A DNA stretch of 64,000 nucleotides, taken from the NCBI GenBank assembly GCA_964016885.1, contig OZ024743.1, positions 287,184,001 to 287,248,000 on the forward strand. Reading direction: 5' to 3'. The notes beneath the pieces were generated by a model that saw nothing but the letters and a program-made list of their open reading frames with translations, was not told where the DNA came from and ran no database searches. The stretch's first letter is position 1, and the number at the start of each line of letters is the position of its first letter. The translations under genes and the position numbers were made by a program. This stretch comes from Eledone cirrhosa. Taxonomy: Eukaryota. Positions 4,525-55,537 of the stretch are shown here, one piece after another.

Positions 4525-5712
4525 AGCACTCGACAAATATTTGGAGTAGATATACGATATTAATAAATGGGTTGGCACTAGGAAGTGTATCTGGCTGTAA
4601 AAGCCTCAAAAAGGACCTCGTGGTGACCATCAAGTTTTTGATGGGACTCACAGAATTAACCTGTATATTCGGTTTCAACCTTTTGTCTCTCATTTTATTT
4701 ACCTAAAACGAAAGATCCATATTAGAGGAATGGCAGAATCACAAGAGCGACATTTGTTCCACACGCTTTCTTGAGCATTAATTTTCATTGCTGTTATGCA
4801 GCACTGGACAGCAAACTTATCTTGTAATCGAAGATCACCTTCCGACGAGTTACGAAGTACCATGTCGACTGTTCATACACCCGCCAGTTTTGATATCACT
4901 TCCAACCCTGTATATGAAGATTAAGATCAAGAGAGGTGGCAATACACAACCATAGCAGAGTCCGATAACAACATTGAATGATTTCGACTTCGCACCATTT
5001 TTCTAAACATAAATACTAGAGCATTCATGTAGGGACTTCAAGGCAACAAAAAGCTGTCCATTGACCCATACTCCTGCGGAACCTTACACAAGTCCCGTGG
5101 AATACGGCCTTACGCTTTTACGAGGTCTACGAAACAAGATACACTTCTTGGCAATACTCCCACAATTTCTCGAAGACCTACTGTACTGAGAATATTGGTC
5201 GGCTGTGCTACGTTTGGGGCAAAAACTACACTGTACATCAGCTAACTTTAACTTGTAGCAAGAGTTGCCTCCCTTGTCATGACAATCTCATCACCGCTCT
5301 CTAGACAGGAAGTAGCTGGAGTTGCTTCCCTTTGGGATTGACAGACTCCCTGTTGGTCACTTCCGGTCACCTCCAATAAAAGGAACAGGTCACCACGATA
5401 TCTCTCTCTTGCCTCCTGATTTCCGAAGTGGTAACACCTGCGACCTTAGCTTGAGATGATTCATTTTTGATAATCCTTCGCTACCAAGAACAATGCAACT
5501 TGTAGCCTAAGAGCCTAAGATGTTAATACCAGCTAGAAAAGATCTCTTCTTTTCTCTACCAACTTCAGCCTGGAGTTGTGACCATCGGGTAATGAATCCT
5601 TAATATTTAATACCTTTGACTTCTATGAAGTAAAAACATTATTACAACACACACCGGTATTTACTGTCTTTTATAATAATTTTATATGTACACCGATACT
5701 AATCTCCCAAAG

Positions 5713-5733
5713 TGGTGACCCCCGACGTGATTT
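5713..5733 (+). promoter_or_regulatory. Primer-binding site for tRNA-Trp
   Basis: TGGTGACCCCCGACGTGATTT complements the tRNA-Trp 3' end (AAATCACGTCGGGGTCACCA) with one extra C. Confidence 0.9.
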
Positions 5734-6198
5734 AAAAAAAAAAAAAAGAATGGGAAATGGTATACGGTGTATATAGTAAAAAAAAAGAAAGACAGAAGAA
5801 AAAGAGAAAAATATAACAATTTAATACAAAACGAACACCTACAATTATTGACACACACACAAACAGCAATTGTATAAATGTTTTTACCTTATTTTTTTTC
5901 TCTCCTTTTCTGCCCTTCTCTTCTCTGGCTAAAAATTTTTGAGGATGACAAGATGGAGTCTCTCTTCTCCATCAATAGTGTTTTTGGCACGAAATAGTCC
6001 GCCATGTTGGATTTTTTTTTTTTAGGTTCCTTGCCCTTACCTTAGTATAACAGCATTCACTTAATCGCCTGTTTACATATTGTCCCAGATGCATAATTTT
6101 CCGGTCCAGTGGTTTGACAGAGAAATAAGCGATTTTGTTTTCCTTTTCTGTTACGTTAGAGACATTTTTCCAAACGGTAGATTGCCTACGGTATATCA

Positions 6199-6972
6199 AT
6201 GGCTTCCCACTCTGTTCTGCCAACGTACACGGGCGACGTGAGGCTATGGTTCGCCCAGTTAGAAGCATTCTTCAGGGCGAACAGAGTTGACGAGGAACTA
6301 CAACATTCTGTGGTCCCTAGCGCAATTCCGCCGGCAATTCTCCCAGCGGTTAAGGACCTCGTGTTAGAGACAACCACAGACTAGTCGTACACGTCTCTGA
6401 AGGCTGAAATACTCAACCGGACAGAACAGTCTTCAGAAAAAAGATTTAGGGCTCTGGTCCATCTGGAGCATATAGGGGATGGCACCCCATCGAATCTCCT
6501 TAGGCGAATGAAGGACCTAACGGAGGGGTCTGCAGCGGAAACTGTCCTGCTGAAGCAGTTGTTCTTCTCGCGCTTGCCGACCAACGTACAGGCAATTTTG
6601 GCCCCCATGAGGGATACAAGCACGGTGGATCAGCTTGCCGCATCTGCGGACAAAGTTTTCGAGGTGACGAATGCCGCTGTTCACCACCCAGCTCGGGCCA
6701 CACACGGCCATGCGATCTACGCGGCAGCGCCAACAGACAGCTCGACCATTATAGCGATGCAAAGGTCCATTCAGGAGCTCACCATAGAGCTCCACAAGAT
6801 GAAGGCCTTATGTGGTGGCTGTTCGCGCCCCCGCAGTCGCGGGAGATCGCAAAATTTTAGACGCCGTTCTAAGTCACCAGCTTCATCTTTATGCTGGTAC
6901 CACGAGCGATTTGCTGAGAACGCGAGTCACTGCGTGCAACCTTGCTCCTTTCATAAGGCGGGAAACGCCTAA
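6199..6972 (+). pseudogene. gag: Gypsy gag with premature TAG at 6382-6384
   Basis: WFAQLEAFF..., LFFSRLP..VQAIL, LA..ADK, CWYHERFAENASHCVQPC motifs in one frame. Confidence 0.85.
6960..6966 (+). promoter_or_regulatory. Likely -1 ribosomal frameshift heptamer G GGA AAC joining gag and pol
   Basis: X XXY YYZ in gag frame just before the stop; -1 frame runs into LMGTAD..FLVDTGAS protease. Confidence 0.75.
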
Positions 6973-9900
6973 GAGGTCCGCTGATGGGGACAGCTGACCT
7001 CAACATAAAGTCACCAAACCGCCATTTCTTCATTAAGGACCTAATGTCCGGAAGAGGTTTCCTCGTGGATACAGGAGCCTCCTGTAGTATTTGGCCGGTC
7101 CATTGCCTGAAAGATACCCCCATAGAGTCATCTGTTACGCTGCAGGCAGTTAACCACTCGTCTATAAAGACGTACGGGAAAATCTCGCTCCCTCTTAAAT
7201 TCCTAAATCTTCGAAGGGATTTTAAGTGGTTTAGCGAGAGTACTGGGTTGTATGAATGTAACAAGGAATACATTGTTTGTGTGTATAATATTTAATTAAC
7301 AATGGTAGATAGTATAGTTGACATGTCAAAGTAATAGATGATAGAATGAAACAAAGTTAGTCGTTACCGTTTTGATTGCCAGGCAAACGCGGCTGGCAGA
7401 GGACGCCTGGCTAAAGCCAGGGCGCCGGAAGGGCAATGAGAGAATGAGAACTTAGAGTTGTTAGTTTTATAGGGTTCTGACCGGAAGTTGCAGAAAGGGT
7501 TCTACTTCCCGTCTGGATGTTAATCCAAACATGGTCGATGTTGAGAATGCGTTGACCTGGAAGGGTCAAGAGGCCAGCGACCAAAGAAATAAGCATTCTG
7601 AATAAATGCGCAGTTTTCAACGGCAAATTTACGTAGTAAATTTTTAAACCGGCAAATAGGAGAATATAGCTTAAGGCTGAAGAATCCTTGGCGAGAAACG
7701 TTATCTCTGGCGTGCGGCTATCTCTGTGAGTCGAGAATTTGTGCTGCCTACACGTGCCAATACAAGGTTGAAAAAATAATATTTCTAACGCGCGAGAAAA
7801 TGATGGTGCAAGTGTGAAAGTGACAATGATTAAAAAGAAAGGCTTCACTCAGCATAATTATTGGTGTGAACTTTGGAAAAAAAAAACTTGAACGATGAAG
7901 AAAACGATGAACAAAAAGGCAATGGTTCATCGAAAATAAATGTTCCTGTTGAAATGTTTTTTAAAGAATATCAAATTTCTTTTTTGTTTTTTTTTTGTTT
8001 TGAAAGAGTTCGTTGTAAGAAACGAGAAACATATATATATATTGGTGAAATGCGACAGTTAGTTGATGCGTGAGAGAAAAAGTCTGTCTGTGCGAATTCC
8101 ACATGTGCGTGTGTGCGTGTCCTTGAGTATTTTCATAGTTTGTCGATAAATTTGCTGTGTATTCGTAATGTTACTCACACAAAACCAGATGTGCTATTTT
8201 TTTCTTTTTTGGGGGTGACCACTTATAGCGATGAACGGCTGCGTGTTCGTATCACGTCAGGGTTACCAATATTGCGAAGAACTGGGTTGCATGAATGTAA
8301 CAAAACGAGACATGGTTTGTGTGTATAATATTTAATTAACAATGGTAGATAGTATAGTTGACATGTCAAAGTAATAGATGATAGAATGAAACAAAGTTAG
8401 TCGTTACCGTTTTGATTGCCAGGCAAACGCGGCTGGCAGAGGACGCCTGGCTAAAGCCAGGGCGCCGGAAGGGCAATGAGAGAATGAGAACTTAGAGTTG
8501 TTAGTTTTATAGGGTTCTGACCGGAAGTTGCAGAAAGGGTTCTACTTCTCGTCTGGATGTTAATCCAAACAAGGGAGACAACCGCTACAGTGGATTTTTA
8601 CGGTTGCCGATTTGCCATATCCCATCTTAGGAGCGGATTTCCTCCACAACTTCTCCTTAACTGTGGACGTCCGTGGCCAACGCCTGGTGGATAACATCAC
8701 CGGCTTTTCAATTCATGGCCAGGAAGCCAATGCTCCAATAGTCAGCCCCATGTTCTTTGTCGCTGCCGCTGGAGACGCCTACCATGCGTTGCTGGGTTCT
8801 TTCCCGGAGCTCACGGATGGAAATTTTCGAGTCACTGACCCAACACACTCGACCGAACATTTCGTTTCCACCACCGGTGCTCCAGTGTTTTCGCGTCCAC
8901 GCCGCTTACCGACGGAAAAATTAAAGGCAGCACGGTCCGAGTTCGACCATATGCTGCAGCTGGGCATTATTCGCCCATCTACGAGTCCTTGGGCTTCACC
9001 GTTACACATGGTGCCCAAGACTTCCGGCGACTGGAGACCTACTGGGGATTATAGGAGGTTAAATGCCATGACCGTCCCGGATAGGTATCCCATTCCCCAT
9101 CTCCACGATTTTGCATCTTCACTGCAGGGGTGTAAGATTTTTTCTAAGTTAGATTTAGTGCGAGCCTACCACCAAATTCCGGTCAGGAAGGAGGATATTC
9201 CGAAAACGGCGATTACAACCCCTTTCGGATCCTTCGAATTTTTGACCATGCCTTTCGGACTCAGGAACGCCGCTAGCACTTTTCAGCGGTTCATAGACGA
9301 GGTCACGCGTGGTCTGGACTTCGTTTATGCTTACATAGACGATATTCTCGTCGCTAGTTCCTCTCCGGAAGAGCATATGCGCCACATGCTTCTCTTATTT
9401 CGGCGACTTCAGGATTACCGGCGTTCGCGTGAATCCTGCAAAGTGTGTTTTCGGTTCCACTTCCCTACATTTTTTAGGCCACCTCATCGACGCCGAAGGT
9501 ATTAGGCCGCTCCCTCAGCGAGTTCAAGCCATACAGGAGTTACCTCCGCCTACTACACTTCACCAGTTGCGTCACTTCTTAGGCCTAATCAATTTCTATA
9601 GGCGTTTCATTCCTCATTGTGCTAATTGGCTATCTTCCCTTACTGACATTTTAAAAAATCGTCGTAAGAAGAATGAAGACATTTCCTTGACACAAGGACA
9701 GCTTCAGGACTTCCAGTCTGCCAAGACAGCACTCGCTAGTTCTTCTTTGCTAGTCCACCCGGTACCAGAGGCCAAGCTTTCGCTTTGTGTTGATGCATCT
9801 GATACCGCTGTGGGAGCAGTTTTACAGCAGTCTTACGCTGAAAACCAACAACCTTTGGCATTTTTCTCGAGGAAGTTGAAACCAGCAGAAACGCGTTATA

Positions 9901-11476
9901 GCACGTTTGGGCGGGAATTATTAGCCATATATCTGTCGGTGAAACATTTCTCTCATATTCTTGAGGGGAGAAATTTTACGGTTTTTACCGACCACAAACC
10001 GTTGACCTTCGCTTTGAGGGCCAAAGCCGACAGATATTCGCCCAGAGAGACAAGGCACCTGGACTACGTTTCACAATTTACAAACGATATCCAGCACATT
10101 GCCGGCTCGCACAACATAGTGGCAGACGCATTGTTACGTTTGCCAATTAGCTCCATCTCGTCATCCCAGGATATCGACTTAGGTCGTTTAGCTGCAGACC
10201 AACCTGCACTCCAATCGTTGGACACTCTTTCTACTGAATTTGCGACTTGCATTTTCAAATATCTGCCCTTGTCCACCACCGACAGGCAGATTCTATGTGA
10301 TGTATCTACTGATGCACCACGACCACTTGTTCCTGAGACTCACCGTCGAATTGTGTTCCTGGCTTTGCACAACATTTCTCATCCAGGATCTGCTGCCACA
10401 GTTAAACTCATAACAGCCAGATTCTTCTGGCCAAATATGAGGCGCGACATTGCTGCTTGGTGCCGTTCCTGTATCGCTTGCCAGAAATCGAAGATCCATA
10501 GACACATCCGGACTCCACTTGGTACTTTCAGTACTCCAGATGCTCGGTTTCAACACATCCACATTGACATCGTTGGACCTTGGCCATTCAGCAGTGGATA
10601 TTCTTACATATTGACGTGTGTCGATCGTTTTTCGCGATGGCCTGAAGCCATCCCTTTACAAGACATGACTGCTGAGACTGTAGCACGTGCCCTGGTATCA
10701 GGGTGGATTACCCGCTTTGGGGTACCAACTACACTCACCACAGACCGTGGTAGACAATTCGAGTCCCATCTCTTCTCTGAGCTCACAAAAATAATTGGAG
10801 CTCAACGGATTCGGACCACAGCCTATCATCCTGCTTCAAATGGAATGGTGGAACGATTCCACCGCCAATTAAAGGCCGCTCTTCGCGCCTATCCAGACTC
10901 TCAACGTTGGAGCGAGTACCTTCCTATTGTGTTATTAGGAATTCGGTCATCAATAAAGGAGGACCTTGGGTTCTCCCCGGCCGAATTAATTTACGGTGTT
11001 CCTCTAGCGTTGCCTGGGCAAATGCTTGCCCTTGTTGATCTTGCTTTCCAAGATCCGCTTTCCTACGTATCCCGTCTGCGTTCTTATTTTCAGGACCTGC
11101 CGCCGATGGATACGAGGAAGCAAACTGTAAAACCTGCGGTCCCGAGGGATATTGCCTCGTGGACCCATGTGTTCGTAAGGAACGATGTGTGAGACCACCC
11201 CTCACACAACCATACTCTGGACCCTACCGTGTGTTAGCACGCACTGACAAACATTTCACTGTAGACGTTAAGGGGTCCAGAGAGACAATTTCGGTGGATA
11301 GACTGAAAAGGGCACACAATGACGCTTATACACCCGAGTCACAAATACCCCAATCTTTCTCTCTTGTGCATACACCTGCTCCTTCTGCCCCACCTTCACC
11401 TACATACAAGACTACGACCCGTTCCGGTCGGAGAGTCCACTGGCCCAAAAAGTTCTGCCAAACTATTTTTATGTGA
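6966..11476 (+). pseudogene. pol: Gypsy pol (protease, RT, RNase H, integrase); insertion at 7230-8589, frameshifts near 9420 and 11190
   Basis: FLVDTGA; DYRRLN, MPFGL, YIDD; DAS..GAVL, TDHKPL; H..HPG/C..C, HIDIVGP, TDRGRQF, VERFH; DFKW/IFTVAD rejoins across the insert. Confidence 0.92.
7230..8589 (-). mobile_element. Non-autonomous, non-coding LTR element (TRIM-like) nested in the Gypsy protease
   Basis: GTGG TSD; ends TTTAGCG...CGCTACA; ~300-bp direct repeats 7230-7531 and ~8270-8589; tRNA-Trp PBS on minus strand; no credible ORF. Confidence 0.9.
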
Positions 11477-12919
11477 ACTGGCCATTGGAGCCTTATATAT
11501 ATATATTTTTTTTGCTGTTCTTGTTATTTATTGATTTATTGTATTGCAATGTACCTCTCATTACCATTTCACTGGATGTATATATATGTTTTTCGTTTCC
11601 TTTACAACGAACATTTTAAGCTATATTCTTCTATTTGCCGGTTTATAAATTTACCACGTAAATTTGCCGTTGAAAACCGCGCATTTATTAAGAATGCTTA
11701 TTTCTCTGGTCGCTGGCCTCTTGACCCTTCCAGGTCAACGCATTCATAACATCAACAACAACAACACAGCTTCATCAACAACTAAAACCAGCAGAACAAG
11801 CCAGACAATTTATTTCTGCAGTACTCTGCCTGTGAGAAATTCCCTTCGGAAGTTGGAAATTTCATGTTATACCACAGACCAGAAACCACCTGCATTCATT
11901 CTCTGGAACACATTCTTTACTGCTGTCATGTGATTGCACACATGTGAACTGTATTTTAGATATTTGAACTTTTGACCTCTTCTCTTACTTTTATTACATT
12001 GTACCATAATTTTCATGCCTCTTACATGCTCGCCATCTTACTCCATGCATGCTTCTTTCGATTTTTATGTTTTAAAAATCTGGCGGGAGTTAATGTAGCA
12101 AGAGTTGCCTCCCTTGTCATGACAATCTCATCACCGCTCTCTAGACAGGAAGTAGCTGGAGTTGCTTCCCTTTGGGATTGACAGACTCCCTGTTGGTCAC
12201 TTCCGGTCACCTCCTATAAAAGGAACAGGTCACCACGATATCTCTCTCTTGCCTCCTGATTTCCGAAGTGGTAACACCTGCGACCTTAGCTTGAGATGAT
12301 TCATTTTTGATAATCCTTCGCTACCAAGAACAATGCAACTTGCAGCCTGAGAGCCTAAGATGTTAATACCAGCTAGAAAAGATCTCTTCTTTTCTCTACC
12401 AACTTCAGCCTGGAGTTGTGACCATCGGGTAACGAATCCTTAATATTTAATACCTTTGACTTCTATGAAGTAAAAACATTATTACAACACACACCGGTAT
12501 TTACTGTCTTTTGTAATAATTTTATATGTACACCGATACTAATCTCCCAAAAACTCATCCCGACATCTCTTAGCATAGGCTCTACCGGAGAAGTTTAAAC
12601 AAGGAAATGCCTCTGTAAATAGAGAAAATTCGATTGTCTTCCTTTTTGAAAATTGAGATTATCACCCCCGATTGCCAATTCACTCAGCATACACTAGTCA
12701 GCCAGAGCAGACCTTCTCTATTTAAGGCTTCTAACATTTCGGGCCGAATTTCATCCTTGACCTCAGCCACTGAGAGATTAGCCTTCAACCCTAGATGCAA
12801 CTCAAGTTCATCATGTTGTTGAAACCGGATTTAGAAGATTAGCAAAGTATTCTCTCCACCGCACAGATGCACCTCTTTCCAAAGAGAACCCCAGATGAGT
12901 CCTAATAGCAGGCGTGCAG

Positions 12920-55214: not shown

Positions 55215-55537
55215 AAGGCACCTAAGTAATGGCAATCAGGAGTGATAATCCTGATTTTCAAAGTGGGAGACAAAAGAGATTGTTCCAATTAAATATTCAA
55301 ACTGCGAGAGATCTTCAAGAAATCGTTGGAGTATTGTCAAGAGGTATATTCTTGCTTGTCGACCTTGTAAAGGAATATGATATTTCAAGGTTCCTTTATT
55401 TTAAGTATACAAATGTGTTTTATAAGTGACTGATAATTGTCAGGCTCCGGACAAGAATTTTTGGTATCAATGGGTTATTGACACCTGTCAAATCAATTAG
55501 TTGTGAGAGTGGTGGAATTTGCAACAACAACCGCGAC

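Follow-up and report, generated by a model that had tools for sequence, protein, structure and literature searches.

How do two LTR retrotransposons, one lying antisense inside the other, come to share a short non-coding sequence, and does that sequence do anything for either of them? The question is posed by a 64,000-nt stretch of the Eledone cirrhosa genome (contig OZ024743.1, positions 287,184,001 to 287,248,000; hereafter the window), in which positions 7534-7674 on the minus strand and 11616-11756 on the plus strand form a gapless, inverted alignment of 141 nt with 132 identities (93.6%; E 2e-56). The first copy of this block belongs to a non-autonomous element, here termed the parasite, and carries the widespread "type 1" state; the second belongs to a Gypsy element, termed the host, and carries a "type 2" state. 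They differ at nine sites (block positions 15, 31, 40, 63, 75, 91, 131, 132, and 139). A first-pass annotation had put the identity of the pair at about 90% and had both copies in the sense orientation of their elements, and our comparison bears it out on either point. The helices that it named (CGGTTT/AAACCG, GCATT/AATGC, and TTGACC/GGTCAA) are all found in the sequence, and only one of the nine differences, the G-C to G·U change that it had noted in the parasite, at position 63, sits in any of them. It had recognized no known RNA family; likewise, an Rfam scan of 5200-12600 gave three matches at E≤10, none near its gathering score (the best overlap, at 16.3 bits, compares with a threshold of 90), and an ARAGORN tRNA scan gave 0 genes. 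Its picture of an isolated shared block between dissimilar flanks did not survive, as the flanks differ through deletions in both elements. The inverted arrangement within one transcript, from which it had derived dsRNA, is real but is the product of one antisense insertion: the pair could form dsRNA only at this broken locus, and dsRNA was rejected as the function of the block, being a by-product of that single event.

The host element and its non-coding insert

The host spans 5254-12551 on the plus strand, with LTRs at 5254-5711 and 12094-12551 that are 98.9% identical and a 4-bp target duplication, AACT. Its tRNA-Trp-type primer-binding site (PBS; 5713-5731) fits the CsRn1-clade PBS as given in PMC2582038. 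The gag frame (6202-6972, from the list of open reading frames) is broken near 6385 and had no match in Pfam; a CX2HX9CX3C (CHCC) motif, translated by eye, lies at its C terminus. Pol is present as reverse transcriptase, RNase H, and integrase pieces in more than one frame (8564-11192; PF00078, PF17919, PF17917, PF17921, and PF00665), and the window's copy is broken in both gag and pol. A tRNA-Trp PBS, a CHCC gag motif, and a 4-bp target duplication are described as marks of the CsRn1 clade (PMC2582038); judged by these sequence marks, the host is a CsRn1-type Gypsy, and its PR-RT-RH-IN order adds to its likeness to the CsRn1/Kabuki clade as characterized in the accessible portions of PMC2582038 and PMC6238403. 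Named protein matches are flatworm pols (54-58%). Downstream of pol, the start of captured parasite sequence (11565-11615) is followed by a deletion of ~370 nt up to block position 1, then by the block, the other part of the captured cassette to have been kept, here called module 2 (11748-12003), the polypurine tract (PPT) region (12079-12093), and the 3' LTR. The latter is a mosaic: its first ~150 nt are like parasite clade Y (72-92%), and its last ~150 nt are like the block-less sister family A2 (62-88%). The sequences flanking the host (5117-5179 and 12634-12677) match 55230-55371 at ~81%, which points to insertion into an older repeat. Elsewhere in the window, 297-635 is an inverted repeat of 165 nt, with arms 98% complementary and 9 nt between them.

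The parasite lies at 7230-8589 on the minus strand, antisense in the protease region of the host and bounded by a 4-bp duplication, GTGG. It is an internally deleted copy of a family of ~2 kb, whose full copies measure ~1.9-2.2 kb and have two LTRs, a PBS, and a PPT but no coding domain. The 5' LTR (8270-8589) is followed by a tRNA-Trp-type PBS (8251-8268) and by a leader segment (8008-8052) that matches host positions 11565-11612 at 85% identity and marks the inferred capture junction at a shared CATTTCA. The truncated 3' LTR (7230-7533) is fused to the block by a deletion seen in this copy alone. It removed ~550-600 nt directly after the block (a gap of 547 nt relative to one other copy and of 594 nt relative to another) and took with it the PPT and the beginning of the 3' LTR. 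All 29 of the other copies examined continue beyond the block and match the host untranslated region (UTR) there at 75-90%; full copies of the family share most of the 3' UTR of the host. The family has inserted antisense into the protease region of a host-family element at least once more, independently and ~110 nt from the site used in the window (L068/L288; G000:C1 near 32.26 Mb), and several other copies adjoin pol sequence of related elements.

Distribution and probable capture of the block

Three exact patterns matched the 3.0-Gb animal assembly 815, 820, and 783 times, with 0 control matches each, and exact-pattern counting thus puts the genomic total at no fewer than 815 copies. The 815 matches begin with 30 that were classified, 26 of them as non-autonomous and 4 as autonomous. 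The pattern placed outside the block recovered 30 loci, all with the block; 12 further matches, picked because they were absent from the block-pattern lists, comprised five with the block, five truncated or rearranged copies, and two members of a sister parasite family, U. Among autonomous elements the distribution is narrow. Sister copies of families A2 and A3, with pol 79-91% identical, have short UTRs and the block in 0 of 20 cases; it was likewise absent from 30 loci of family B, from C-type loci, from 40 autonomous leaders (best model match E 0.19), and from 20 further autonomous bodies. The best 80 of 321 metagenome relatives also have short UTRs without it, four pattern matches in viral contigs included none that scored with the model, and prokaryote contigs gave 0 matches. 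Thus, a general CsRn1 or Gypsy 3' UTR feature was rejected, every other autonomous family tested being without the block; in contrast to its CsRn1/Kabuki relatives here and among those best 80 of 321 metagenome sequences, with their short block-less 3' UTRs, clade A1, to which the host belongs, is the only one with the captured cassette. Family B was also seen as a tandem array, with integrase matches every ~5.3 kb over at least 12 units (L092 and L096-L103; G000:C3 346.97-347.04 Mb).

In a tree computed from 43 integrase rows, none of them a named reference element (one further row was omitted for a short match), the 11 block-carrying autonomous rows fell in one clade (97/90), with a copy retaining the full-length cassette as the basal member, whereas the other 32 rows are block-less families or copies, including three of A2 (L449-451). 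The UTR is far longer in some autonomous copies, where parasite sequence is preserved both before and after the block; the lineage of the window's host has deleted ~370 nt before it, ~105 nt after it, and ~120 nt further down. The similarity of the host to its sister family ends near CATTTCA, which is also present in the parasite leader. Taken together, these sequence relationships suggest that a helper likely captured the 3' half of a parasite and then trimmed the captured DNA, and that the block in the helper is most likely a recent capture from the parasite. Mechanistically, the capture would have gone through a template switch, guided by a brief microhomology, from an A2-type gag-pol RNA to the parasite's 3' half; a single such switch would explain the restriction to one clade, the CATTTCA junction, and the mosaic LTR.

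The parasite appears to have dealt with more than one helper. Clade X, which looks older (median LTR-LTR identity 97.4%, n=23), has a PPT and U3 that are 87-90% identical to those of a different autonomous family, E (L395, L397, and L400 versus L159, over the PPT-proximal region and the LTR start), even though the integrase of family E is just 66-70% identical to that of A1. Family E is a likely helper or donor for clade X, and the parasite core has been fitted with the 3' ends of different helpers.

Once captured, the block was mostly kept. Of 40 copies chosen by their integrase alone, 34 retain it whole, and the six that do not are three A2 copies, one with an A2-type UTR, one cut before the block, and one with a partial block. 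The 5' deletion of the main lineage ends at block position 1, and an independent one, found in 19 copies, ends at position 3; as the predicted long hairpin described below starts at position 2, both amplified 5' deletions stop at its foot. These endpoints are suggestive, with the caveat that the block is itself defined by these breakpoints and that module 2 is also always kept. Module 2 (11748-12003; +246 to +600 relative to L135) is common to A1, to all block-carrying parasites, and to the block-less family U; being more widespread than the block, it may be the more essential cis-element, and no consistent folding signal was found in it.

Predicted fold, conservation, and candidate roles

On the sense strand the block is predicted to form a long hairpin of 84 nt (block positions 2-85; 11617-11700 in the host), with helix pair probabilities of 0.39-0.97 in four lineages. 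At its apex, an 8-bp stem encloses a 3-nt loop that varies (11647-11665; pair probability 0.94-0.96, with 0 broken cells in 42 distinct rows). Further downstream, TTGACC/GGTCAA would form a hairpin with a 6-nt loop (block 106-123; 11721-11738; 0.93-0.98) that is broken in some sub-lineages. These two smaller hairpins are robust in four lineages (0.93-0.98), while the long 2-85 stem competes with the GCATT/AATGC pairing. The alternative GAATGC/GCATTC pairing proposed in the first-pass annotation has a probability of ≤0.01 in context, although it would survive as G·U after the A127G change that is fixed in clade X. The minimum free energy of the whole block corresponds to a z of -3.06 in the host copy and -1.93 in the parasite copy, longer stretches give -0.67 to -1.96, and in five copies the sense-strand windows that cover the block rank with the lowest of the whole cassette. 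Two-sided covariation, the check that the same annotation had called for, was found at 0 of 29 pairs (RNAalifold), in an alignment that is 96% identical and hence of low power, and the covariation score (0.029) did not exceed that of shuffled alignments (0.032).

Changes between lineages are mostly in loops, G·U-compatible, or such that a mismatch is closed in register (25:63, 14:76, 34:48, 38:44, 15:75, and 31:51), with pair gains at 15:75 and 31:51. Among 29 shared variants, 7 disrupt pairing, at positions 59, 82, 107, 118, 119, 5, and 81, against 11 expected (p 0.052), whereas the 80 singleton variants behave as neutral (32 pair breaks against 31.5 expected). With two robust hairpins predicted, two-sided covariation lacking, and the sparing of pairs borderline, the block has modest support as a structured cis-acting RNA.

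The main competitor is a neutral passenger that entered with the parasite's PPT and U3 and was kept similar by template switching between helper and parasite, its hairpins being incidental; we consider this somewhat unlikely. The lack of covariation speaks for it, the tendency of shared variants, unlike singletons, to spare pairs speaks against it, and comparisons of the block with its flanks cut both ways. When 135 unique copies were grouped into clades (123 assigned), fixed changes between X and N1 numbered 2/139 in the block and 64/585 in the flanks (Fisher p ~1e-4), and those between Y and N1 0/139 and 33/554 (Fisher p ~1e-3), the two tests not being independent of each other. On the N branch both flanks changed by 6-11% and the block did not, which counts against neutrality. 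By contrast, X versus Y (block 2/139, flanks 13/611) and A1 versus Y (block 7/138, module 2 17/212) are the two clade comparisons, out of four, in which conservation of the block does not exceed that of its neighbors. Conservation above the neighboring UTR, also asked of the block at the outset, is therefore seen on one branch and not in the other two comparisons, so that the signal is owed mainly to the N branch. Even there, the N1 majority passed the 60% cut narrowly (32/52): the other 20 of the 52 copies differ at nine block sites and carry a type-2 block that has derived states in common with A1, which indicates exchange with the helper. Type-2 states are also common to A1 and the parasite subgroup V, again as expected of exchange. 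Such homogenization has a precedent in partner pararetroviruses of plants, in which a helper and a dependent element keep a non-coding region alike by region-specific recombination rather than selection, as reported in PMC5491270; compared with that description, our elements are of another class, and the common stretch has been trimmed to a core predicted to be structured. Finally, the ending of two independent amplified deletions within 3 nt of the hairpin base speaks against a passenger.

Packaging signals usually lie between the PBS and gag, and a hint of the block's role comes from a family that has leader sequence in its place. The sister parasite U (~10 copies; L315, L316, and L328-L338) consists of its own LTR body, pieces of A3 leader, and module 2; it lacks the block, and in the corresponding slot it holds a 116-nt piece that is 94-100% identical to the leader of family A3, where the matching piece lies ~140 nt past the PBS, upstream of gag. 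The flanks of the block also align weakly and collinearly with the A3 leader, the block appearing as an extra segment (z up to 3.6), in comparisons of which just 3 of 48 had 0/200 shuffles scoring as well; none of the 135 block copies pointed to a donor family in which the block precedes gag. Given that the slot is leader-derived, and given the way in which the block was retained and its predicted fold, we favor the block as a candidate packaging or dimerization aid acting on the sense RNA, with a probability of about 0.4. Under this model, block RNA would fold into the 84-nt hairpin and one small hairpin, thereby aiding dimerization or packaging. The working analogy is the dimerization/packaging signal of VL30 (PMC516450), where a short sequence within a non-autonomous LTR element promotes dimerization and packaging by the proteins of another element; the two are likened by description alone and not by sequence, and the activity of the block is putative. 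All other autonomous families tested, and family U, have replicated without the block, which is accordingly not required. The earlier proposal of an undescribed, possibly structured cis-acting RNA is still the best reading, with no Rfam match against it; its support is modest, and the proposal does not extend to Gypsy elements in general.

The place of the block in the host admits another cis-acting role. RNA transport elements of the MTE/RTE kind lie between pol and the 3' LTR, where the block was kept after capture, and its travel with the 3' ends of different helpers would fit a role facing the host cell rather than one specific to a Gag. By analogy, the fold might recruit a cellular factor for the nuclear exit or survival of a long unspliced non-coding RNA. 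Against this, the block lacks AAGACA, which we take to be the motif of MTE-type transport elements, and has no Rfam match; block-less helpers export their RNA without it, and in family U the slot is filled by a piece of leader. The MTE of MusD does provide a precedent for a structured cis-RNA with a transport function in an LTR retrotransposon, as reported in the accessible part of PMC5767303, but it differs from the block, in which neither a motif match nor a pseudoknot or kissing pair was identified. We regard an export or stability element as quite unlikely.

The same palindromes could also act as DNA. TTGACC/GGTCAA read in this way amounts to everted RGGTCA half-sites (TGACCC-N4-AGGTCA is found in the sequence), which, with an AT-rich palindrome, might serve dimeric transcription factors and boost LTR transcription; palindromic sites would equally yield invariant "stems," and words that we take to be YY1-like and E-box-like occur upstream in long copies. 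On the other hand, the half-sites are altered in amplified sub-lineages, and several shared changes pair just as sense-strand G·U, although the difference is weak (7 breaks on the sense strand, 8 on the antisense strand, and 11 under strict pairing). An enhancer, suggested by these sequence words, thus seems improbable. The presumed YY1-like words (AAGATGG/AAAATGG) recur in the leaders of several families (L313, L344, and L310), as well as upstream of the block (L137:1790-1910).

A small protein or a self-cleaving ribozyme is the most far-fetched of the readings. A hydrophobic frame of ~75 codons, with an ATG just upstream of the block and overlapping it, is open in clades X and Y (-27 to about +200 relative to L135). 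Its ATG is lost in N1/N2, a stop interrupts it in V and most A1 copies, and changes between clades, read by hand, are mostly non-synonymous; coding in any of six frames was rejected. As to the ribozyme that the first-pass annotation had listed as an option, the host block has no hammerhead core (no CTGANGA), and there is no Rfam ribozyme match, leaving it without support.

Relation to known elements and significance

The history of capture is much better supported than any function of the block. A search of the literature, with Repbase and Dfam outside its reach, found no description of the block element, and the LTR families described here may already be catalogued in those databases. The parasite resembles TRIM/LARD-like elements in having two LTRs, a PBS, and a PPT, in being non-coding, and in swapping modules between families, as these are presented in the accessible text of a preprint (bioRxiv 10.64898/2026.03.01.708851) and of a study of bivalve TRIMs (PMC6934838). 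It departs from them in its size, the family being ~2 kb and the TRIM limit 1000 bp as given there, and in that its conserved core rides with the 3' ends of different helpers and that transfer runs from parasite to helper. Cassandra, Helenus, and Ajax are likewise non-autonomous LTR elements with an RNA-like module, but this module is derived from tRNA or 5S RNA and resides in the LTR, according to PMC10886601, whereas the block is internal and negative with ARAGORN and Rfam. What is new is the specific element and the trimming after transfer from parasite to helper; that non-autonomous LTR elements exchange modules was known before.

How non-autonomous LTR elements enter the particles of their helpers is poorly known beyond vertebrates and yeast. 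Here, natural deletions delimit a 141-nt candidate, block-less sister families are ready controls, and the question can be tested with short RNAs. A helper taking a cis-acting module from its parasite, the likely direction in this case, turns the customary derivation around. Should the block be neutral, the locus would still be a clear but ordinary record of modular recombination among LTR families. A bolder and rather unlikely reading would make the block a packaging or export signal that was born in the parasite and is independent of the helper; if true, such a signal would have carried a non-coding LTR family, by way of several distinct Gypsy helpers, to hundreds of copies before one helper lineage took it over and trimmed 1.1 kb of captured RNA down to the block and one other piece, in an arms race whose transfer ran from parasite to host element.
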